From contig JADHYE010000002.1 in assembly GCA_016782605.1 (NCBI GenBank), positions 48,067-112,066 of the forward strand: 64,000 nt of DNA. The letters run 5' to 3'. This DNA comes from Minisyncoccota bacterium (GTDB lineage Bacteria; Patescibacteriota; Minisyncoccia; Minisyncoccales; RBG-13-42-11). The number at the start of each line of letters is the position of its first letter. The first letter of the stretch is position 1. Below, one piece after another: positions 3,710 to 60,930 of the stretch. The notes under the pieces were generated by a model. That model did not search any database. It was not told the origin of the DNA and saw only the letters and a program-made list of their open reading frames with translations. The position numbers and the translations under genes were made by a program.

Positions 3710-3725
3710 AATTTTAATTTAAGTT

Positions 3726-3754
3726 AAAAATAAAAAATCCCGACTTCCTCGGGA
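3726..3754 (-). terminator. attenuator terminator in the cysK leader
   Basis: Minus strand UCCCGA-GGAAG-UCGGGA followed by UUUUUUAUUUUU, 17 nt before the cysK ATG region. Confidence 0.6.
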
Positions 3755-3782
3755 ATTATTGTTTTAAGCTAATTATTATAAA

Positions 3783-3866
3783 TCAAACAAAACAAACGCT
3801 TCCCGAGGGTATCCCGAGAATGCAACAATAAATATTGTTATTTTTATGCAATCTAATTTCTCCCAT
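3783..3866 (-). CDS. candidate cysK leader peptide MGEIRLHKNNNIYCCILGIPSGSVCFV (27 aa)
   Basis: Own translation. Tandem Cys codons UGU UGC lie at 3827-3822. The ORF covers two copies of CUCGGGA, complementary to the terminator 5' arm. Confidence 0.45.
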   Translation of the reverse strand: MGEIRLHKNNNIYCCILGIPSGSVCFV

Positions 3867-3872
3867 ATTTTA

Positions 3873-3901
3873 ATTTTATCATAATTAAATAAAAAAGTCA
3901 A
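3873..3901 (-). promoter_or_regulatory. sigma70-like promoter for the cysK leader
   Basis: Minus strand TTGACT (3901-3896), 17-nt spacer, TAAAAT (3878-3873). The ATG at 3866 is the 7th nt after the -10 box, which is leaderless geometry. Confidence 0.5.
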
Positions 3902-3910
3902 CCCATCCAT

Positions 3911-4016
3911 CAAAAAACCGCCACCGCCGAAAGGCGGATTGGCGATTTTTATCGTGGCTTGCCCTGAGCAAGCGAAGCGAGTCGAATGGGCTCGCCCTAG
4001 CGGACGATTTTAGAAC
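3911..4016. repeat. R-family element with bidirectional terminator hairpin
   Basis: aaaaaaccgccaccgccgaaaggcggattggcgattttt (GAAA-loop hairpin, A-run/T-run flanks), then gccctgagc..gaatgggc module, then ctagcggacgattttagaac. Close copy at 4661-4790. Confidence 0.8.
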
Positions 4017-4080
4017 TTTAAGCCGGGAGGAGGTGTTTAAGTATCCTGAAGTGGTGCTGGCTCAACTAAGAGAACTGACT

Positions 4081-4096
4081 GGACGATGTTAGAGCC
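4081..4096. repeat. R-family core only (ggacgatgttagagcc)
   Basis: Same 16-mer core as 2768-2808, 4001-4016, 4751-4790, 40924-40939 and 41568-41583, without the inserted module. Confidence 0.6.
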
Positions 4097-4101
4097 CTAA
4101 A

Positions 4102-4123
4102 CAAAAAACCAGCTAATAAGCTG
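4102..4123 (-). terminator. intrinsic terminator
   Basis: Minus strand CAGCU-UAUU-AGCUG followed by GUUUUUUGU. Confidence 0.6.
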
Positions 4124-4285
4124 ATTTCTTGTCCCAAGCAAATCTCTTTCTGAGGCTTACTTGGGGAAGGAAGGGGAAGAAGGATGGGTTCTTATCCTGC
4201 CTAATCGCCCTACATTGCTGTAGAGAAAGTGCAATTACCCTTACGGACCATTGTCCTAACCATGCTTCCCCTTTTGAGGTAAGAG

Positions 4286-4564: not shown

Positions 4565-4660
4565 GTTTTCTCACCTCCTTTCGTATTGGATTAGAAAGAA
4601 AAACTCTATTTCCTTCTGTCTATATTATATAATATAATTTTATAATTGTCAATCTTAGCC

Positions 4661-4790
4661 AAAAACCCGCCACCGCCGAAAGGCGAATTGGCGATTTTTA
4701 TCATAGCTTGCCCTGAGCGAGCGAAGCGAGTCGAATGGGCTCCCCTGGTTGGACGATGCCTGCCCTGAGTCGCATCGAAGGGTTAGAACC
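4661..4790. repeat. R-family element, full form
   Basis: Terminator hairpin, gccctgagcgagcgaagcgagtcgaatgggc module, then ggacgatg[cctgccctgagtcgcatcgaaggg]ttagaacc. Confidence 0.8.
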
Positions 4791-4831
4791 TGTTTAATAA
4801 AATAAAGACCACTCAATAAAGAATGGTCTAT

Positions 4832-5295: not shown

Positions 5296-5904
5296 CTAAT
5301 TCTTTTTCTTCGCCAACTCAAACGTTTTCAAGTTTAATTCTAGATATTTTTCCGGAATTACTTCTTTAATCGCTTTCTGGATTGATGCTGGTTTCAAAGG
5401 AATTAATCCTTTAAACGCAGCAAAACTTATCAAATAAATTCCGGAAACAACGCTTTTCCCCAGTTTTTCCTGGCAGAGTTTATCAGCTGGAACTACCTTA
5501 ATCTTTTTACTAATTTCCTTTAACTGAAATAAAATTTCAGCTTCAGGCAAAGGTTTTTTCAAAGGAATTGGAATTATAAGCTGATTTATTAAAAAGTTTG
5601 TTTTCGGATTGGCAAAATATATTCCATTTAAAATCTCCTGCTCTTCCAAACCTAAAACCAAATCTGCTTTTCCTTGGGCAACCATTGGAGAAAAGATTTT
5701 CTTTCCGAATCTGATATGCACTTCAACAGAACCACCTCTCTGAGATAATCCGTGCAGTTCAGAAGTCCTAACATCATATCCCTCAAACGTAGCTGCTTCT
5801 GAAATTATCTGCAAAAGAGTAATCAGGCCCTGTCCGCCAGTGCCGACTATGACCATATTGAATTGCCTTGCCCCGTTAGAAATTTGATTTGTTTTCTTAT
5901 TCAT
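5296..5904 (-). CDS. iorB: indolepyruvate/2-oxoacid:ferredoxin oxidoreductase, beta (gamma-domain) subunit
   Basis: MVIVGTGGQGLITLL... matches the pyruvate/ketoisovalerate oxidoreductase catalytic domain. Start is ambiguous: ATG 5904 lies inside element A1, ATG 5856 lies after it. The track start 5937 is unlikely. Confidence 0.8.
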   Translation of the reverse strand: MNKKTNQISNGARQFNMVIVGTGGQGLITLLQIISEAATFEGYDVRTSELHGLSQRGGSVEVHIRFGKKIFSPMVAQGKADLVLGLEEQEILNGIYFANPKTNFLINQLIIPIPLKKPLPEAEILFQLKEISKKIKVVPADKLCQEKLGKSVVSGIYLISFAAFKGLIPLKPASIQKAIKEVIPEKYLELNLKTFELAKKKN

Positions 5905-5949
5905 AATAAATAATTTTATTCCCACGTTAATACGCAATTTCTAACGGGG
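5871..5949. repeat. A-family long-stem element A1
   Basis: ccccgttagaaatt (5871-5884) pairs with aatttctaacgggg (5936-5949). 51-nt AT-rich loop. Confidence 0.8.
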
Positions 5950-14808: not shown

Positions 14809-15838
14809 CCGCTTCTTCTGAACTTATGCGGTCTTTTCTTTTTTTGAAAAAATCACTGATGAATTCAAAAAAGATTCCGGCTAAAGGAATTGCCAGGATA
14901 GCGCCTAACAATCCCCAAAGCTGTCCGCCAATCAATAAAGCGATTAAAACCAAAACTGGCGGCAATCCGATGAATTTTTTGCTCAAAATCGGAGTAAGAA
15001 TATTTCCCTCTATCTGCTGGATCAGAAAGAAAACAATCAGAATGAATATGGCTTTTAACCAGTCCTCCAAGAAAACCAAAATAGCAATTACTCCTCCAGC
15101 CAATACCGGACCAATAATGGGAATAATGTTGGTGATGCCGGCAAACAAACCCAAACTGAAAGCGTAATCAATCTTAAACAGTTTTAAAGCGAGAAAAGAA
15201 GCCAATCCCACGAAAAAGCAGCATAAAACCCTTGTACCGAACCATCCTGAAATCTTCTGCTGAGATCTTTCCCAAACGCTTACTGCATAATCCTCGTTTT
15301 TCTTCGGGAAAAAAAGCCTGATCGCTCTTTCTGCCCATTTGCCTTCCAGAGAAAAGAAAAAAGCAAGGGAAAAAATGGTAAAAGCGGAAAAGATTCCACC
15401 GAAAACAGCTGAGAGAGCAGTAAAAATATTCGAAGAAGCGCCTAATAACCAATTTTCAGAAGAGGCAATGAAACTTTCAAAGCTTTCAAAAGCTCCTATA
15501 CCCAGCCATTTTAAAGGCGGAGTTATTTTTTCAAAGTATTGCGAGAAAAGTTCGGCGAACTGCCTGATTTCAGGGATAAAAGACAAAGATATCAAATATA
15601 TTGCTCCCCCAAAAAAGCCGAAAATCAAAACATAGACCAAACCGGTAGCCAGAACGCGGTGAACTCTTCTCCTTTGCAGGAAATCTATTGCCGGATTGAA
15701 CAAAACCGAAATAATCAAAGCGAAAATGATCAAAATCAAAATATCCCTGATTTCATAAAGGAGATAAATGATAAGAGCGGCCAAAGCAACCTTTAAAATG
15801 CTCCTCCAGGAAATATCCAATAGTTTTTCGCTGTTCAC
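14801..15838 (-). CDS. AI-2E family transporter (PerM-like permease)
   Basis: 345 aa, multi-TM, family-like C-terminal half. The GTG start overlaps the last nt of element A2. Confidence 0.75.
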   Translation of the reverse strand: MNSEKLLDISWRSILKVALAALIIYLLYEIRDILILIIFALIISVLFNPAIDFLQRRRVHRVLATGLVYVLIFGFFGGAIYLISLSFIPEIRQFAELFSQYFEKITPPLKWLGIGAFESFESFIASSENWLLGASSNIFTALSAVFGGIFSAFTIFSLAFFFSLEGKWAERAIRLFFPKKNEDYAVSVWERSQQKISGWFGTRVLCCFFVGLASFLALKLFKIDYAFSLGLFAGITNIIPIIGPVLAGGVIAILVFLEDWLKAIFILIVFFLIQQIEGNILTPILSKKFIGLPPVLVLIALLIGGQLWGLLGAILAIPLAGIFFEFISDFFKKRKDRISSEEAVA

Positions 15839-15970
15839 CCCGTTAGAAGTCTGTCTTTATATGGCTTTAAACCAATTTCAGACATCCTTTGTTTTTTGAT
15901 TATACCCCGTTATTGCAGAACAGAAAAAATTTTAATTTAAATTTTTTCTGACAAAGACTTCTAACGGGGT
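15837..15970. repeat. A-family long-stem element A2
   Basis: accccgttagaagtct (15837-15852) pairs with agacttctaacggggt (15955-15970). An extra half-site accccgtta lies at 15904-15912. The loop holds a TATAAT (minus strand, 15904-15899). Confidence 0.85.
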
Positions 15971-17239
15971 TCATAATTTTAGCAACTTTTGAAATTTTTC
16001 TTTGTCTTTAAAGGGGCCGATTAAAGCCAGATTCAACTTATCATTTCTGAAAATCTCTTTGGCTACTTTCAGAATATCATTCTGGCTGACTTTATCAATC
16101 ATCTGGCATTGTTTTTCCGGAGTATCAATATTGCCCTTTAATATTTCCTGTTCGCCAAAATATGTTGCCCAAGCTTCAGAAGTTTCTAACCCCAAATAAA
16201 GATGACCTTTTATATTGTCTTTGGCTTTTTGAAGCTCTGCTTTTGATACTTTTTTTTCTTTTAGTTTTCGGTATTCCTTAATAATGACCTTAATTGCATC
16301 TACTGTTCTTTTATTGTCGAGTCCGGTATGAGTAATTAGATATCCTGAATCAGTATATGCTTCAGCCATTGCTCTAACATGGTAAGCCATACCCCTCTTT
16401 TCCCTGATTTCGGTAAAAAGCCTGGAACTCATATTCCCGCCCAAAAGATTGGCTAATACTGCTAAAGGATATCTTTTTTGAGAAAAAATATTATAAGCTC
16501 TCACGCCCAAAGCTAAGTGAGTCTGATCTGTTTCTTTTGTTTGAATCAGAACTTGCGGAGTTTTTTGCTTTTCAACTACGGGCTTTTTAGACAAAGTTTT
16601 ATTCTTTTTAAATTTATCGAAAAACTTCTTTAATTTAAAAATTGCTTCTTTTTCTGAAAAATTTCCAGCTAAAACTATAACTGCATTCTTTGCGTTAAAT
16701 TGATTTTTAGAATATTTTATTACGTCCTCTCGAGAGATTTGCCTTACTGTTTCTTTTTCTCCTGAAATCATCCAGCCAGCCGGCTGATCTCCATATAAAA
16801 GTTTTTCCCAGAGCTCTAAAATATATGCCTGCGGCATATCAAGAGACATGTTAATTTCTTCAATAATTGTCTTCTTTTCCTTTTCAACGGCTTTCTCTTT
16901 AATAAGGGGATTGAAAATCATGTCTGAAATGATATCGCAAGAAAGTTCAAGGTGCTTTGAATCAACTTTTGTCCAAAAACCCATTAATTCCTTGCCAGTA
17001 TAAGCATTAATAATGCCGCCAACCTTATCTATCTCTTTGGCAATATCTGTGGGATTTGGCCGTTTCTTTGTCCCCTTAAAAACTATATGTTCCAAAAAAT
17101 GAGAAATACCGTTAATTTTCTTAGTTTCATATTTTGTTCCAGCGCCAAATAAAACAAGTAAGGTCAAAACCCGCGTATTTTCCATTGGGTAAGTAATAAT
17201 GCGTAATCCGTTCTTTAAAACGGTTTTCTTTAAAGCCAT
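15971..17239 (-). CDS. M16 family (pitrilysin/insulinase-like) zinc peptidase
   Basis: 422 aa with the HFLEH inverted zinc motif. Confidence 0.85.
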   Translation of the reverse strand: MALKKTVLKNGLRIITYPMENTRVLTLLVLFGAGTKYETKKINGISHFLEHIVFKGTKKRPNPTDIAKEIDKVGGIINAYTGKELMGFWTKVDSKHLELSCDIISDMIFNPLIKEKAVEKEKKTIIEEINMSLDMPQAYILELWEKLLYGDQPAGWMISGEKETVRQISREDVIKYSKNQFNAKNAVIVLAGNFSEKEAIFKLKKFFDKFKKNKTLSKKPVVEKQKTPQVLIQTKETDQTHLALGVRAYNIFSQKRYPLAVLANLLGGNMSSRLFTEIREKRGMAYHVRAMAEAYTDSGYLITHTGLDNKRTVDAIKVIIKEYRKLKEKKVSKAELQKAKDNIKGHLYLGLETSEAWATYFGEQEILKGNIDTPEKQCQMIDKVSQNDILKVAKEIFRNDKLNLALIGPFKDKEKFQKLLKL

Positions 17240-27171: not shown

Positions 27172-27221
27172 ATTAGTTATTTTAGCTTATTTCATTTAAA
27201 AATTAAAGGATTTAATGTTAA

Positions 27222-27286
27222 ACCCCGTTAGATATTAATAAAATAATGAATCAATCTTAGGTGTTTACAACTTTATCTAACGGGGT
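27222..27286. repeat. A-family long-stem element A3
   Basis: accccgttagata (27222-27234) pairs with tatctaacggggt (27274-27286). Confidence 0.8.
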
Positions 27287-27298
27287 AAACTTAAATTA

Positions 27299-36215: not shown

Positions 36216-36692
36216 TCAGCTAATTCTGTATTTTATCTTCTTAATCTTGTAAGTTGTATGAATTGGAGAAGAAACAACAACCGCTTCTCCGGCCTTGTGC
36301 CCCAAAAGAGCTATGCCAACAGGTGATTCATTGGAAATTTTGCCGGTAGAAGGATTGGCTTCCAGAGATCCGACAAGAGTGAATTCATCAGTCTGCCCGC
36401 CAACTTCAACTGAAATGGTCGCTCCCAAATCAACAATATTTTGCTTTTCTTTGCGGGGAGATTTGATTAAAGTAGCGTTCTTAATAATGCTGTCTATCTC
36501 TAATATCCTCGACTCCAGAAAACTGACATCTTCCTGGAAAACAAGATATTCGGGATTCAAATCTTCGGACTGCAAAACCTTAGGAGATTCTCCTCTGGTT
36601 TTAGCAAGCTTAAGCTCTTTTAAGCTCTTGTATTCATTCTTTATCTTTTTCAGTCCTTCTTTGGTTAGATAAAACTTTTTTTCTTCTGGCAT
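36216..36692 (-). CDS. greA: transcription elongation factor GreA
   Basis: 158 aa. LTKEGLKKIKNEYKSLKE coiled-coil, then a C-terminal FKBP-like domain (ISNESPVGIALLGHKAGE). Confidence 0.9.
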   Translation of the reverse strand: MPEEKKFYLTKEGLKKIKNEYKSLKELKLAKTRGESPKVLQSEDLNPEYLVFQEDVSFLESRILEIDSIIKNATLIKSPRKEKQNIVDLGATISVEVGGQTDEFTLVGSLEANPSTGKISNESPVGIALLGHKAGEAVVVSSPIHTTYKIKKIKYRIS

Positions 36693-36780
36693 CGAAGTAA
36701 ATAATTAATTGTTTACGAGATGAGAGATGAATTTTAATTCATCGAACATCGAAATAAATTAATTCATTGAACATGTTTTT

Positions 36781-37018: not shown

Positions 37019-39595
37019 TTAGAATAATGTTTTTTGCTTCAATAATTTCTTGCTTTCACCCTGATCAAAAATCCTGATCTTGCCGAAAACTCCGTCATAT
37101 CCTGGCTCTTTGTTTACCCTCCCCTCTCTTACTCTTAATATTCCTTCTGCAATCTCAGGCAAAGCAGCTGATTTCAGCCTTTCTGGCGAAGTATTGAGAA
37201 GAATCTCAAATTCAGAGCCGAATTCCTCAATCAGGCTTTGGTATGTTTTTTCTACTTGTTTGCTAGCTACGGTCATACCCAAGGTATCAGCAACAATTTC
37301 TACTAGGGGAACTAAACTTTTAAAAGGTATTGCATTTTCCGGCTCAAATCCTTCTTTTTTATCAGACAACGCATCAACCCTGTTTAAAACTCCGACGGTT
37401 AACGGCTTGCCGCAAACCGGACAGATACCGTTGTATTTTTTGGTTTCTGTGGGAGATAATCTGACCTCGCAGTTCCGGTGTCCGTCAAAATGATATTTGC
37501 CTTCTTCCGGAAAAAACTCAATAGTGTATAAAAACTTCTTTGGATCTTTGGTTTTAATCGCTTCGACAATTGATTGATAGCTTAACTCTGTATCAAAAAC
37601 ATTGGCTTCCCTGCCTATCTTCCTTGGACTATGCGCATCGCTGTTTGAGATAAGGGCTGTTTTTCGGCCGTCTGGCATACGCCAAAGCATGTCTGGAGAA
37701 GCGCTCAAACCTGTTTCCATTGCATAAATGTATTTTGATAAATCTTCAAAACATTCTTCAATTGAATCAAATCCTGATTTTGAACCGAAAATGGCGAACC
37801 ATGGGGTCATGCAATTATGAACCGCAGCAAACTCACTAAGATAAGAATTGTCTCCTTCAACTTCTAAATTATAAACTTTACCTTTATACTTTTTAACTTT
37901 AATGTCTAATACTGGTAAATAAATATTTTTCTTGTCTATCCAGCAATGCCTTCGTTCTAATTTATAATTGAATTTTTTGAATTCAAGAGTTTTTAGCAAT
38001 CCAAACAAATCTTCAAAAAATGATAATTGCCTAAATATAAATGAAGAATGTTGGGCTTTAATAATCCTATTTTCCTTTTTATATAAATGAGCATATTTTT
38101 TATTAAATACTTCTTTGGTTTGTTCATAAATAGAAGGAATAATTCCTAGTCGAAGCAGAATAATCTTCATTTGATTCATGAGTTCCCTAGAAGAAGTAAC
38201 GCCACCATCGCCTCGCCACCATCCCCTAAAAACCTCTACTTGTTTTTCCAATGGTAAATTTAACATCCAAGAAGGCAAACACTTGGTATAAGCTTTTCTA
38301 AACTCAGTACTATTATAAAAAATCTGGCTAAAAACTTTTGCTAAAATTTTTGAGAAATAGATAATTTCCACAGCATTTACATCTTTCCTTCTATACAAAC
38401 GAGGTGAAGAAAGGCCAAAAACTTTCTTCATCAATAATTTTACATCCTTAATATATTTATTCTCATTATAATGAAAACAAAACGAAACCGAATCTCTATT
38501 ATCTGCATAACCCTCCGAAAGATAATATCCTACTAATCTACAAAATTCTTTATCTATCTTTATTACATTGTTTAATTTCTTGTCAACTCTTCCTTTAGTA
38601 CAACTTATTTTATCTTGATAAACTTTAAATAATTTTCCAGAAAGATAACTATTAAGTTTAATCTCTTCTATGTTTTTTGTAATATTATTGAACCTTGGAA
38701 AAATAAGGATATCGCCCTTTTTTACTTCTTTCGCTTGGACCCATTGCGGTTTATATTCTTTAAAATAGGGATGTTTGCACCCTCTACTTTTGTGATAAGA
38801 ACAATTTGGCTTACAGATAGTATGTGAACAATTTTTACAGTCCTTATAACTTTTAATTATATAGAATGGATGCTCTTTCGTTGTTTTCAGGCCAATTCTA
38901 AAATTATACGGTCTTATATTATAAACTGGTCCCTTATAAGGTCTAGTATAGATTTGTTTAACTTTCTTCAATCTTCCTTGGTGAGTATAAACTTTATCAC
39001 CAACAGAAATATCTTTTATCGGTTTAACCCCAAGATTGCTATGTAAAAAAGTATCAGGCGGTAAACAATGAGCAGGTATAACTAAGCAGTCTTCTGAAGC
39101 GCTTAAAACAATCTTTGCCAATTCTTTGGCATCCAGTCCCAGAATCGGCCTGCCGTCTGATTTTAAATTGCCGATCCAGCCCAACTGAACGTTAATCTTT
39201 TCTACTGCCTCAAAAGAAGGAGCTAAGATCAAAATATGAATTTTCCTGACTCTGTTGTTAGTCAAAGAGGATAAATCCTCTTTTTCACCCTTCGCTGCGG
39301 CTCGGGTTTTAGAATAAATGCAGCTTATTTCATTGGTCAGGATAAAACGCGTACCGTTATCCTGTTTTTTCATTTTAAAAAGCCCGAGTTCTGCGGGCTC
39401 TAATTTATCTTTTAAAGATTTAAACCACTCCGGATGGCTGAAGTCGCCAGTCCCTAAAACCTTAATGCCCTTGATCTTCGCCCACTTATCAAGATTTTCC
39501 AAATCCATGTCCCTAGAAGTGGCTCTCGAATATTTGCTGTGAATGTGAAAATCCGCTATGAACTTCATCCCAATAAAGCTGCCCAAAATAGGCAT
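37019..39595 (-). CDS. EndoQ-like PHP-domain endonuclease interrupted by an intein
   Basis: Exteins: FIADFHIHSKYSRATS, LGTGDFSHPEWF, VIPAH|CMTPWFAIFGSKSGFDS, and C-terminal zinc finger CPVCGKPLTVGVLNRV. Extein total is 440 aa. Confidence 0.8.
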   Translation of the reverse strand: MPILGSFIGMKFIADFHIHSKYSRATSRDMDLENLDKWAKIKGIKVLGTGDFSHPEWFKSLKDKLEPAELGLFKMKKQDNGTRFILTNEISCIYSKTRAAAKGEKEDLSSLTNNRVRKIHILILAPSFEAVEKINVQLGWIGNLKSDGRPILGLDAKELAKIVLSASEDCLVIPAHCLPPDTFLHSNLGVKPIKDISVGDKVYTHQGRLKKVKQIYTRPYKGPVYNIRPYNFRIGLKTTKEHPFYIIKSYKDCKNCSHTICKPNCSYHKSRGCKHPYFKEYKPQWVQAKEVKKGDILIFPRFNNITKNIEEIKLNSYLSGKLFKVYQDKISCTKGRVDKKLNNVIKIDKEFCRLVGYYLSEGYADNRDSVSFCFHYNENKYIKDVKLLMKKVFGLSSPRLYRRKDVNAVEIIYFSKILAKVFSQIFYNSTEFRKAYTKCLPSWMLNLPLEKQVEVFRGWWRGDGGVTSSRELMNQMKIILLRLGIIPSIYEQTKEVFNKKYAHLYKKENRIIKAQHSSFIFRQLSFFEDLFGLLKTLEFKKFNYKLERRHCWIDKKNIYLPVLDIKVKKYKGKVYNLEVEGDNSYLSEFAAVHNCMTPWFAIFGSKSGFDSIEECFEDLSKYIYAMETGLSASPDMLWRMPDGRKTALISNSDAHSPRKIGREANVFDTELSYQSIVEAIKTKDPKKFLYTIEFFPEEGKYHFDGHRNCEVRLSPTETKKYNGICPVCGKPLTVGVLNRVDALSDKKEGFEPENAIPFKSLVPLVEIVADTLGMTVASKQVEKTYQSLIEEFGSEFEILLNTSPERLKSAALPEIAEGILRVREGRVNKEPGYDGVFGKIRIFDQGESKKLLKQKTLF
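37814..39067 (-). mobile_element. intein with a LAGLIDADG homing-endonuclease domain (418 aa, residues 177-594)
   Basis: Starts with Cys (AH|CLPPDTF) and ends VHN|C. Contains LVGYYLSEGYADN and FRGWWRGDGG dodecapeptide motifs. Boundaries checked codon by codon. Confidence 0.8.
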
Positions 39596-40505: not shown

Positions 40506-40581
40506 ACCCGGTTAGTAGAAATTCGACTAAACTTTGTTTATTATCACTGCTCCGGCAGTGATCGAATTTTCACTACCGGGC
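40506..40581 (-). repeat. B-family structured element B2 (abuts the ATG of the LOG-family gene)
   Basis: Its reverse complement aligns with B1: gcccggtagtgaaaattcgat / cactgccggagcagtg / A-rich linker / gtcgaatttctactaaccgggt, then ATG 40505. Confidence 0.8.
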
Positions 40582-40645
40582 ATAAGCTATTCTTATTTTA
40601 ACACAACTCTTTAAATTAAAAAATCCCACACAAGCCGGATTCTTT

Positions 40646-40726
40646 ACCCCGTTAGAGAATTAGATGTCAAATAATTTATCATTGGTTATTTTAAACTAAA
40701 ACCCGCCAGAGGTTCTCTAACGGGGT
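40646..40726. repeat. A-family long-stem element A5
   Basis: accccgttagagaa (40646-40659) pairs with ttctctaacggggt (40713-40726). Confidence 0.8.
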
Positions 40727-40923
40727 TTAATAAGGGGGAATAGCTCTTGGCGAACTTGATTATTTACCCGAGTCTAAATGGACATTGTTAGGCAGCTGCT
40801 GTTATCTCCTTCATCAAAAACTATTTGTCCTTTTGGGCAAAAAACCCGCACCCCCTCACTTTTAATTTTAATTGAGTGGTGTTTTTTGTCAAGATTTTGT
40901 TGATTTGCTCGTCTGGGGCTATG

Positions 40924-40939
40924 GGACGATGTTAGAACC
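40924..40939. repeat. R-family core (ggacgatgttagaacc)
   Basis: Same 16-mer as in the 2.7-4.8 kb region. Confidence 0.6.
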
Positions 40940-41012
40940 TATTGGCAAAATAAAAAAGGCCGCTGGGCAAACCATACGGCTCTTTTTGATTTTCTGTATC
41001 GCGCAAGCGTAT

Positions 41013-41195
41013 TCAATTATTGCTGTTACACCTACACGGCAATACATTCAACGATGGCATGATGCCATAAGCTTCTGGGTTTAGCGTGCCGTGACATTTA
41101 GAGCAGAATTTTGCTCCGCAACTGTTACATTCATGGTCATCAACCTCGCCGGTACGACAAACAGGACAACTTCCTTCACAACCACAATCTGACAT
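41013..41195 (-). CDS. Cys-rich mini-protein (60 aa, 10 Cys)
   Basis: CGCEGSCPVC..CNSC..CSKC. Strong SD AAGGAGGG. Downstream hairpin plus T-run near 40958-40995. Confidence 0.6.
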   Translation of the reverse strand: MSDCGCEGSCPVCRTGEVDDHECNSCGAKFCSKCHGTLNPEAYGIMPSLNVLPCRCNSNN

Positions 41196-41214
41196 AATAC
41201 CCTCCTTTTAGGTC

Positions 41215-41445
41215 TTAGGAAAAATCTTCACCGCCACACTCTTTACACCCTGGTCCGTCCAATGCTGTACGTGAACCGCAAAAAGGACAAAATGCATTCC
41301 ATAATGGTCCGCCCTCAAATAATAAACTATCTCCAGGAATTGGCACTCCCTGAAAGCAATGAGGCCCATTATGTTCCTTTTTGAGAACGCACAACTTTTC
41401 TCCACTTGCAAGACCGCATCTCTCAATATTTGTCGAAACTGCCAT
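41215..41445 (-). CDS. Cys-rich Zn-ribbon mini-protein (76 aa)
   Basis: CPFCGS...CKECGG. Strong SD GGGAGGT at 8-nt spacing. Confidence 0.6.
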   Translation of the reverse strand: MAVSTNIERCGLASGEKLCVLKKEHNGPHCFQGVPIPGDSLLFEGGPLWNAFCPFCGSRTALDGPGCKECGGEDFS

Positions 41446-41520
41446 AACTTATTACCTCCCTAACAAAGTGTACTATATTCCAAAATTATCAAATTCCATA
41501 AAAAAATCAAGTCCTCTTTC

Positions 41521-41583
41521 AAAAAACCGCCCTCTGTGCGAAGCGGCGGATATCGACTCGTTCTAGCGGATAATTTTAGAACC
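41521..41583. repeat. R-family element (terminator hairpin plus ctagcggataattttagaacc)
   Basis: Begins 3 nt after the methyltransferase stop (minus sense). ccgcc...ggcgg hairpin with A/T-run flanks. Confidence 0.65.
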
Positions 41584-41586
41584 AAA

Positions 41587-42276: not shown

Positions 42277-42310
42277 AGATAAAAATTAATACCTTTTTAT
42301 TATTTTACCA

Positions 42311-42338
42311 AAAAACCGCCTGACTGGCGATTTTATTT
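42311..42338 (-). terminator. terminator after the tRNA locus
   Basis: Minus strand CGCC-AGUCA-GGCG followed by GUUUUUUGG. Confidence 0.55.
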
Positions 42339-42339
42339 G

Positions 42340-42519
42340 TGCCCCCAGCAGGAATTTCACCCCGCACCTTTTTAATGTGTCCCCACTCCGATTCGAACGG
42401 AGATTATAACCTCCGGAGGATTATGCTTTATCCATTAAGCTATGGGGACATAAAGGTGCGGGGCAGGCCTGCATTTTAAGTTCCGGAAACTCATGTTCTA
42501 TCCATTAAACTATAGGGGC
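42340..42519 (-). tRNA. interrupted tRNA-Arg(CCG)-like gene (5' 52 nt + 108-nt insert + 3' 20 nt), possibly a pseudogene
   Basis: 42519-42468: GCCCCTA-TA-GTTT-AATGGATA-GAAC-A-TGAGT-TTCCGGA-ACTTA-AAAT-GCAGG. 42359-42340: TGAAATT-CCTGC-TGGGGGC-A. Acceptor pairs 7/7 and T-stem 5/5, but the T-loop is non-canonical. Confidence 0.65.
42378..42449 (-). tRNA. tRNA-Arg (anticodon CCG), canonical 72 nt, nested inside another tRNA gene
   Basis: GTCCCCA-TA-GCTT-AATGGATA-AAGC-A-TAATC-CTCCGGA-GGTTA-TAAT-CTCCG-TTCGAAT-CGGAG-TGGGGAC-A. All stems pair. CCA is not encoded. Confidence 0.9.
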
Positions 42520-46400: not shown

Positions 46401-46470
46401 ACCCCGTTTAGAAATTTTAACTGAATGGGGTTATACTGAAATACTATGCGCCAAAAATTTCTAACGGGGT
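46401..46470. repeat. A-family long-stem element A6
   Basis: accccgtttagaaatttt pairs with aaaatttctaacggggt (1-nt bulge). The loop holds TATACT and the uvrB ATG. Confidence 0.8.
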
Positions 46471-60848: not shown

Positions 60849-60930
60849 ACCAAGTAGTGAAATTTTGACAGAGCTTTTCTAAAGAAAAGCTGTAAAAACC
60901 GCGTAGCGAGTCAAAATTCTACCACTTGGT
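60849..60930 (+). repeat. B-family structured element B3
   Basis: accaagtagtgaaattttgac / agcttttc-taaa-gaaaagct / A-rich linker / gtcaaaattctaccacttggt. Same architecture as B1 and B2, with compensatory changes and the same A-C and G-U positions. Confidence 0.75.

Follow-up and report, generated by a model that had tools for sequence, protein, structure and literature searches.

Short palindromic elements, probably mobile and MITE-like, at gene boundaries of a Paceibacteria genome

We analyzed 64,000 nucleotides of DNA (the window; contig JADHYE010000002.1, positions 48,067 to 112,066) from a Paceibacteria bacterium (Patescibacteria, candidate phyla radiation or CPR), in which six inverted pairs of the form CCCCGTTAG(A)...(T)CTAACGGGG enclose AT-rich interiors that are mutually unrelated. 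We read these elements, here called the A-family, as miniature non-coding palindromic mobile DNA elements resembling MITEs (miniature inverted-repeat transposable elements), and we put the probability of this reading at roughly 0.8. The first-pass annotation of the window had described their anatomy correctly; their nature, however, is that of a MITE-like palindromic mobile element and not that of a host regulatory hairpin. Distinctive for a MITE-like family are the occurrence in many phyla, the hypervariable interiors, the regeneration of start and stop codons, and the recurrence at the same sites. Literature searches on the core sequence, on MITEs in CPR, on IS1380/piggyBac, and on TNNA targets returned no description of the A-family, which is, as far as the literature was searched, undescribed.

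An exact search found the core CCCCGTTAG 12 times in the window, and the six copies, their coordinates, their copy-specific complementary extensions, and their unrelated AT-rich loops were confirmed; with up to one mismatch, 16 cores were observed against 5.9 expected, a number reached in 0 of 100 shuffles. The paired arms lie at 5871/5949, 15838/15969, 27223/27285, 32997/33125, 40647/40725, and 46402/46469, the left arm of the last pair carrying one extra T. The 10-nt core is identical in all window copies, and the stem extends beyond it by 4, 5, 2, 7, 3, and ~7 bp in copies 1 to 6, with a sequence that differs from copy to copy. Compared with shuffled controls, all of the window copies fold with z-scores between -3.9 and -8.6. 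The anatomy of the family can be written as 5'-CCCCGTTAGA-NNN ... N'N'N'-TCTAACGGGG-3', a 13-bp terminal inverted repeat in which 10 positions are fixed by the search pattern and 3 are free yet complementary, around a variable interior that is often folded into hairpins of its own. The elements tested measure 29-146 nt (family range, 29-150 nt) and contain no open reading frames (ORFs) of their own, the ATG codons in their loops reading only into host genes. Rfam gave no match overlapping any A copy, whether its gathering thresholds or a relaxed E ≤ 1 was applied.

Copy 1 (5871..5949, 79 nt) lies between iorA and iorB, and its entire length is an insertion relative to the sister genomes. Copy 2 (15838..15969, 132 nt), which contains a degenerate third arm, ATAACGGGG, near 15905, is located within the ATGA stop/start overlap of the genes for an M16 peptidase and an AI-2E permease. 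Copy 3 (27223..27285, 63 nt) occupies the divergent intergenic region of ArgRS and SmpB, where it adjoins an element of a second family (B), and copy 4 (32997..33125, 129 nt) the region of the polX start codon. Copy 5 (40647..40725, 79 nt) is missing from the sister genomes, and copy 6 (46402..46469, 68 nt) was inserted after the ATGTTCA of uvrB. The earlier inventory of six copies was right but overlooked a seventh, minimal hairpin copy of 29 nt (CCCCATTAGAAGATTTTTTTCTAACGGGG, 32343..32371) inside the polX ORF, as well as the 4-bp direct repeats that flank the elements.

Target-site duplications and empty sites

The flanks are TTCA on both sides of copy 2 (15834..15837 and 15970..15973) and copy 4 (32993-32996 and 33126-33129), TAAA on both sides of copy 3 (27219-27222 and 27286-27289), and TTTA on both sides of copy 5 (40643-40646 and 40726-40729); those of copy 6 (TTCA left, TTTA right) and copy 1 (TTAA/CAAG) are not perfectly repeated. 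A wider set of elements was collected with the pattern CCCCGTTAGA-N36-96-TCTAACGGGG from one genome per Genome Taxonomy Database (GTDB) species and comprises at least 120 DNA stretches. Taking these loci and the window together, a perfect 4-nt direct repeat stands exactly at the element boundary in 68 of 136 elements; shifted registers gave 0-3 of 136, and repeats of 3, 5, and 6 nt occurred 1, 3, and 0 times, respectively. The consensus of the duplicated target is T (93%)-N-N-A (93%), and self-complementary targets (TTAA, TATA, TCGA, TGCA), which make up 23% of background TNNA, account for 0 of ~61 perfect duplications. The elements insert with a 4-bp target-site duplication, preferentially at TNNA.

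All six window copies are absent, at the exact point, from sister Paceibacteria genomes whose flanking proteins are 85-97% identical, and the duplication can be rebuilt exactly from the empty sites at polX, uvrB, and the M16/permease junction. At polX, AATCAATGAAGAACC in the sister locus L127 (PolX 91-94% identical) corresponds to AATCAATGAA[element]TGAATAACC in the window; in longer context, these are TTTTAATCAATGAAGAACCAAG and TTTTAATCAATGAA[CCCC...GGGG]TGAATAACCAAG. At uvrB, L138 (95%) reads GGATGTTCAAAATTG, also given as GCAGGATGTTCAAAATTGTC. At the M16/permease junction, L139 and L152 read ATTATGAACAGCG / AAAATTATGAACAGCGAAAAAC, which is the ATGA stop/start overlap itself, and these loci are 97% identical to the window, or 89% at 4-fold degenerate sites. 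At iorB, L220 and L221 (90-91%) read ATGATTAAAAAAGCAGAACAATTYAATATG and the element is absent. For copies 3 and 5, as well as for the elements B1, B2, and C1 of two related families, the alignment blocks to L127 and L130 break at each element, and wherever the L127 or L130 sequence runs through the site the neighboring blocks overlap by exactly 4 nt. No A element was found in any sister region examined. Since the copies are absent from the sister genomes, the insertions are younger than the split from those relatives, and it was only afterwards that the window lineage acquired all six. The first-pass annotation had held that the copy-specific pairing argues against a MITE, a view against which stand the boundary-exact 4-bp duplications and the precise insertions relative to sister genomes.

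Known bacterial MITEs, such as Correia/NEMIS in Neisseria, the enterobacterial ERIC/IRU, and the pneumococcal RUP, are small and non-coding, occur in many copies, and carry terminal inverted repeats; on insertion they duplicate a short target of constant length. They are found in transcribed DNA between genes, fold into long hairpins, and vary in occurrence among close relatives. The A-family resembles them in size, non-coding nature, terminal inverted repeats, fixed-length duplication, insertion polymorphism, and copy number. However, classical MITE families have conserved interiors, are restricted to one genus or family, and duplicate TA, whereas A elements have only their 13-bp ends in common, across many phyla, and duplicate 4 bp of the form TNNA. 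We know of no parent insertion sequence (IS) for the A-family.

Two other kinds of short repeated DNA were weighed at this point. REPINs, inverted doublets of repetitive extragenic palindromes (REPs) mobilized by a single-copy RAYT (REP-associated tyrosine) transposase of the IS200-like HUH type, are likewise short, multi-copy, extragenic palindromes with conserved ends, variable spacers, long hairpins, and no linked transposase. An HUH/RAYT enzyme inserts next to a fixed tetranucleotide and makes no target duplication, however, while the A elements show a 4-bp TNNA duplication of variable sequence confirmed by empty sites; a single A arm, unlike a REP, is not self-complementary, the arm has GTTAG in place of the conserved 5' GTAG that precedes REPs, and a partial scan of the window proteins found no RAYT-like gene, so that we regard a REPIN origin as very improbable. 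Invertons, in which an invertible promoter segment lies between inverted repeats bound by a recombinase, would account for a common core with locus-specific extensions bracketing short AT-rich segments upstream of genes, and yet they fare still worse and are hardly credible here: direct 4-bp repeats flank the segments, the whole segment is missing in sister genomes, copies lie inside ORFs and between overlapping genes, copy 2 has one orientation and 100% identity in six independent assemblies, and no invertase or recombinase gene is found nearby in the annotated regions of the window.

Paired ends, variable interiors, and distribution

Among 133 distinct elements, the two arms pair at positions 11, 12, and 13 in 94, 91, and 71% of cases, with all four Watson-Crick pair types (at position 11, A:T 69, G:C 31, T:A 21, and C:G 4), whereas positions 14-22 pair at 17-36%, which is the chance level. 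Across 128 distinct arm pairs from many genomes, 52, 30, and 39 cells were changed on both sides at pairs 11, 12, and 13; the covariation score was 0.193 against 0.083 in shuffles, a value reached in 0 of 500, and slid controls gave 0.06-0.08. The terminal pair is C..G in 142 elements and T..A in 6, and is never asymmetric. The covariation is real but only 3 bp long across the family: the earlier proposal that the stem covaries beyond the core is borne out for pairs 11-13 and goes no further, pairing from position 14 on being at chance. Copies 1-6 of the window carry AAT, AGT, TAT, AGT, GAA, and AAT at positions 11-13, and the symmetry is therefore not explained by a single sequence-specific protein contact. 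It could have arisen from within-strand pairing of the ends, from template-switch correction of quasi-palindromes, or because both arms go back to short and perfect hairpins; minimal elements, 29-40 nt long, are indeed found. The complementarity may be kept through handling of a folded single strand or through identical duplex end sites. An asymmetry of G-U wobble pairs is uninformative as an RNA signature, since either strand of a palindromic element may be taken as the forward one.

A different mode of movement would have the element travel as a folded single strand of DNA or RNA, like integron attC sites or the ends of IS200/IS608, with an enzyme recognizing the 13-bp stem and with site-directed, homing-like spread. 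The variation of positions 11-13 and of the terminal pair only as complementary pairs, even within one genome, speaks for this mode, as do the 29-nt elements, which are too short to loop two duplex ends together, and the interior hairpins of copy 2 and its relative at locus L145, in which 3 pairs are changed on both sides and none is broken. A fixed 4-bp duplication, on the other hand, is the hallmark of staggered cuts in a duplex target, and the known single-strand systems (HUH transposases, IntI at attC) produce no duplication; a single protein that binds the two duplex ends would likewise be expected to keep them symmetric, as would template-switch correction of quasi-palindromes, and no candidate enzyme was found. 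We therefore regard single-strand movement as a possibility, though a doubtful one. Guide pairing of the IS608 type, between the duplicated target and the arm triplet, was considered and rejected; by inspection, the duplication does not track the 11-13 triplet.

Integron attC sites themselves have imperfect inverted repeats with GTTRRRY/RYYYAAC-like boxes, to which GTTAGAA/TTCTAAC of the A-family is comparable, and both are of similar build (attC, 57-141 nt, with a variable center and a structure conserved above sequence). In the A-family, however, the R''(RYYYAAC)...R'(GTTRRRY) order of attC is reversed, GTTAGA lying on the 5' arm, extrahelical bases are missing, the 4-bp duplication is present, and the neighbors are syntenic housekeeping genes in place of an integrase or a cassette array. 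An attC identity was rejected on the reversed box order and the housekeeping neighbors.

Interiors are common only to members of subfamilies, such as the copy 2 type and the uvrB type, and these subfamilies cross host lineages. Identical copies within single genomes (three in L027; four in L023/L018/L097) show copy-and-paste behavior. Between copy 2 and the L145 copy, 26% of the interior positions are different; their 34 predicted pairs comprise 3 with changes on both sides, 1 with a change on a single side, and none that is broken. This compensatory signal became weaker after a third member was added, in a poor alignment. A degenerate internal third arm occurs in 37 of 129 elements (shuffles, mean 12 and maximum 22), usually 21-47 nt from the terminus it complements, which suggests that the elements are composites built on short hairpins. 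The interiors matched no other DNA in the loci, and capture of the interior from the local target was rejected for copy 2, whose interior is not significantly similar to its flanks (p ~0.7).

The same termini and type of duplication are carried by the at least 120 DNA stretches of the wider set, which derive from metagenome-assembled genomes (MAGs) of many phyla, among them Patescibacteria (many classes), Omnitrophota, Planctomycetota, Desulfobacterota, Nitrospirota, Nitrospinota, and Cloacimonadota, together with Spirochaetia, Bacteroidales, and Gammaproteobacteria. The density is ~8 elements in 78 kb of the window genome versus 8 in 905 kb of related Paceibacteria DNA. Only 3 viral contigs contained the pattern, and phages are thus no obvious vector. 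We also observed interiors common to MAGs assigned to different phyla, namely Spirochaetia with Planctomycetales and Doudnabacteria with Omnitrophota and Pirellulales (L091:431-539 versus L095:1637-1711; L015, L030, L033, and L058), which points either to transfer of subfamilies across phyla or to binning errors.

Gene boundaries, same-site recurrence, and the search for an enzyme

The persistence of A elements at gene boundaries is shown to go together with a rebuilding of the neighbors' stop and start codons by the element ends. At the permease and polX genes, the target TGAA lay within ATGAA before insertion; the first TGAA copy still provides an upstream stop codon or spacer, and the terminal G of the element joined to the duplicated TG forms a GTG start. 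The GTG starts at 15838 and 32997, which the first-pass annotation had already pointed out together with in-frame ATGs in the loops, thus exist because the element inserted into ATGAA. For copy 2, the left duplication (TTCA, or TGAA on the gene strand) gives the permease GTG start with the terminal G of the element, and the right one holds, on the gene strand, the stop codon TGA of the M16 peptidase. At polX, the original ATGAAG has become ..ATGAA[element]TGAAT.., and the NCBI annotation of polX starts at this GTG. The variant with T...A ends (TCCC...GGGA) regenerates ATG, and 4 of 6 such elements are located at ATGRA starts. Other copies supply the start from their interior. At uvrB, copy 6 separates the original ATG-TTC-A from the gene, and the new start is the ATG at 46446 within the copy, from which reading through the right arm gives MRQKFLTG-FKIV. 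At iorB, an iorB-type start, ATGAATAAGAAAACAAATCAA, lies in the interior of copy 1; the frame that it opens continues through the right arm and adds ISNGARQ. Within the polX ORF, the 29-nt copy belongs to a 33-nt in-frame insertion (LHPVRKKSSNG) that is missing in closer homologs.

In descriptive counts over the wider set, an ORF of at least 80 codons begins within 30 nt of an element end in 52 of 124 elements, and one ends within 12 nt of an element end in 30 elements. The first-pass annotation took the elements for a structured RNA or single-stranded DNA of the host that acts in cis to control or couple the flanking genes, with the pairing kept by host selection. The strong predicted hairpins, the arms abutting stop and start codons, the number of ORFs that begin near an element end, and the compensatory changes in one subfamily would all suit such a regulator. 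Its overlap of arm and gene start is real; as evidence of host regulation, however, it loses its force, being a consequence of the insertion site and of which insertions survive. Moreover, the six copies are absent from sister genomes in which the genes are otherwise collinear and intact, the targets are duplicated, and the same termini stand beside unrelated genes in many phyla with no Rfam family, so that a regulatory origin appears quite improbable. Secondary co-option of single copies, for example in translational coupling, may nevertheless take place.

The palindromic elements of Rickettsia (RPE), which are 100-150 bp long with a conserved sequence, occur only in Rickettsia, and have no described TNNA duplication, are also selfish palindromes tolerated in frame in genes of reduced genomes, where they add short peptides. 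Their counterparts in the A-family are the LHPVRKKSSNG segment of polX, the MRQKFLTG segment of uvrB, and the ISNGARQ segment of iorB. The A-family differs in that its coding insertions measure 21-70 nt and the same codon is used repeatedly in separate lineages.

Such recurrence at identical sites was found at several genes. At the M16/permease junction, the copy 2 subfamily is also present in L145, and 10 other relatives have an empty junction. The M16 protein of L145 is 71% identical to that of the window and the 4-fold degenerate sites are 39% identical (saturated), while the arms of the two elements are identical at 16 of 16 positions and the interiors at 74%. At uvrB, the arm-encoded N-terminus occurs in 9 of 121 UvrB homologs, whose nearest neighbors (81-97% identical) do not have it; L222, L223, and L224 keep ATGTTYA upstream and show a TTYA duplication, and the window and L222 elements match at 65 of 68 positions although the 4-fold degenerate sites of the hosts are only 36% identical (saturated). 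At codon 2 of uvrB, only an element with an in-frame start codon can persist. In the polX loop, small insertions stand at the same codon in 18 of 120 homologs, P0017 having the identical peptide and L219 a 29-nt hairpin with a different stem at the same place. The start in the interior of copy 1 (MNKKTNQ) is typical of iorB in distant lineages, whereas the sisters of the window genome have MIKKAEQ. This recurrence requires horizontal movement of the elements, and it requires either site-directed insertion or a very strict survival filter; it looks like homing or a strong selective filter. The same subfamily at the same site in at least eight UvrB lineages, and the close match of the window and L222 elements in saturated hosts, also suit movement as a folded single strand.

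In this loop of PolX (after GDVD..KN, window ~32330-32380; homologs P0001-P0120) we observed a hot spot of insertions of 7-16 residues, for example LHPVRKKSSNGA, LHPHTKNSGVEA, SASAKDSAD, and PRRGRESSSQAA, at least two of which are encoded by 29-nt hairpins with different stems.

Homing elements, such as group I introns and inteins with homing endonucleases, are similarly sporadic at exact sites of conserved genes with the closest relatives empty, and their phylogeny is discordant with that of the host, as is the case for the A elements at uvrB, polX, M16/permease, and iorB. In contrast to homing elements, the A-family lacks an endonuclease ORF, neither splices nor co-converts its flanks, and duplicates its target.

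Copy 6 has on its left the recipient target TTCA and on its right TTTA, which is the duplication at the near-identical L222 copy. In this one case, the flanks would fit an excised element that carries 4 nt of donor flank, in the manner of piggyBac; a donor-type right flank beside a target-type left flank can also be counted in favor of single-strand movement. A possible likeness to piggyBac/IS1380 ends, to be taken only as a lead, comprises CCC...GGG termini, a 4-bp T..A duplication (TTAA in piggyBac), and the resemblance of the piggyBac inverted repeat CCCTAGAAAG to CCCCGTTAGAAA of the A-family. The lack of self-complementary targets among the perfect duplications is the opposite of the TTAA rule of piggyBac.

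Several observations weigh against MITE-like mobile elements. Perfect duplications are lacking in half of the elements, and 17 elements have flanks of an inverted type, with TTYA to the left of the element and TRAA to its right, the reverse order never occurring. The flanks of copy 1 (TTAA/CAAG) surround the target CAGA, which is not TNNA; a CTTG/CAAG flank recurs in ~9 elements (loci L007-L126). Homologous elements at the same nucleotide in distant lineages, with close relatives empty, are not predicted by random transposition, and the distribution at uvrB needs 8 state changes on a neighbor-joining tree and that of the polX loop insertions 11. Unlike in a classical MITE burst, 118 of 138 interiors are singletons. 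Finally, neither a transposase nor a full-length element was found in the window, next to the at least 120 genome loci, or in 0.9 Mb of related Paceibacteria DNA.

The search behind this last point covered the window and ~2 Mb of fetched loci and detected neither a transposase or recombinase nor any long element that has these ends. From the genome loci, 920 ORFs were clustered and the recurrent ones scanned with Pfam; all of these were housekeeping genes (type II secretion system (T2SS) ATPases, ABC transporters, BipA, ClpB, and others). Ten large ORFs of the window include no transposase, and an ORF between two inverted copies in L023, tried as a candidate, proved to be a secreted protein. 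When elements 0.4-4 kb long were sought that combine CC(C) ends with a minimum arm length of 12-14 nt and a 4-bp duplication, nothing beyond chance matches turned up. Few solo arms were found, and their partners are degenerate.

For MITE-like elements, the mechanism would be a putative transposase, probably of the DDE type, that acts in trans and makes a 4-bp staggered cut. The exact complementarity of both ends would then present the same site either as two duplex ends or as one folded stem. In the mRNA, an end-to-end hairpin would keep the upstream stop and the downstream start adjacent, and insertions at operon junctions may be tolerable in this way. A more far-reaching proposal is that the elements form a new class of hairpin-structured mobile DNA, handled by a putative enzyme through their own end stem, with piggyBac-like carry-over of 4 nt of donor flank, horizontal spread among CPR and across phyla, homing-like re-insertion at the same codon, and interiors that carry a start codon or 5' coding fragment keeping the gene alive; we offer this only tentatively and think it unlikely.

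Related families, other features of the window, and implications

Elements of the B-family (ACCCGGTAGTGAAA...) and C-family (CCCTGTATATCAAC...) likewise end in CCCNGT-type sequences, duplicate 4 bp (TATG/CATA), are located on start codons, and have no counterpart in sister genomes, so that the A-family is one branch of a larger group. B1 (27298..27376; CCC termini ACCCGGTAGTGAAAATTCGAC, flanks TATA/TATG) abuts the ATG of smpB and is absent in L130. B2 (40507..40580), 85% identical to B1, has the duplication CATA and is absent in L127, L130, and L137; in their identity of 85% throughout, B1 and B2 are similar to classical MITEs. A third B-like element (60849..60930; ACCAAGTAGTGAAATTTTGAC...GTCAAAATTCTACCACTTGGT) lies upstream of a T2SS ATPase gene. 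C1 (24902..25033; CCCTGTATATCAACATCCAG...CTGGATGTTGTATTACGGGG, duplication CATA) is located at the IleRS start codon and is absent in L130, and C2 (60127..60279) has 20-nt termini in common with it. In addition, ~79 nt directly upstream of the ORF 36216..36692 (36693-36771) are missing in L127, L130, and L137 and appear to be one more small insertion, unlike the others in type.

Several other features of the window were recorded. The ORF 37019-39595 on the minus strand encodes 858 amino acids compared with 393-424 in sister genomes, and its extra segment (37815-39065, ~1250 nt) matches intein splicing and LAGLIDADG domains, which marks this protein of the MJ0043_C family as the host of an intein that contains a homing endonuclease. 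GC-richer blocks recur between genes (2713-2812, 3710-4285, 4565-4831, 40900-41586, and 42277-42509; for example, AAAAACCCGCCACCGCCGAAAGGCGRATTGGCGATTTTTATC and GGACGATG..TTAGAACC) and may represent repeats or small RNAs, without an Rfam match. On the minus strand of 40900-41586, within a 1.08-kb "intergenic" region, there are short Cys-rich frames (CxxC, rubredoxin- or zinc-ribbon-like) that fall below the 80-amino-acid limit of the ORF list. Above threshold, Rfam matched nothing in the window but the transfer-messenger RNA (27817-28174, 133 bits), which adjoins smpB, and one tRNA gene (42378-42449).

The genomes of CPR/Patescibacteria are tiny and densely packed, and an element able to occupy a stop/start overlap, or even an ORF, while leaving the gene alive illustrates how compact genomes tolerate selfish DNA. 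The same elements set traps for annotation, in the form of GTG starts, the N-terminal MRQKFLTG of UvrB, and the 11-residue loop insertions of PolX. The same 10-bp ends and TNNA duplication across phyla imply a widely shared or transferred mobilizing enzyme, and the recurrence at identical sites might expose a mechanism of targeting or, alternatively, a selective filter of unusual strictness on the insertion sites.

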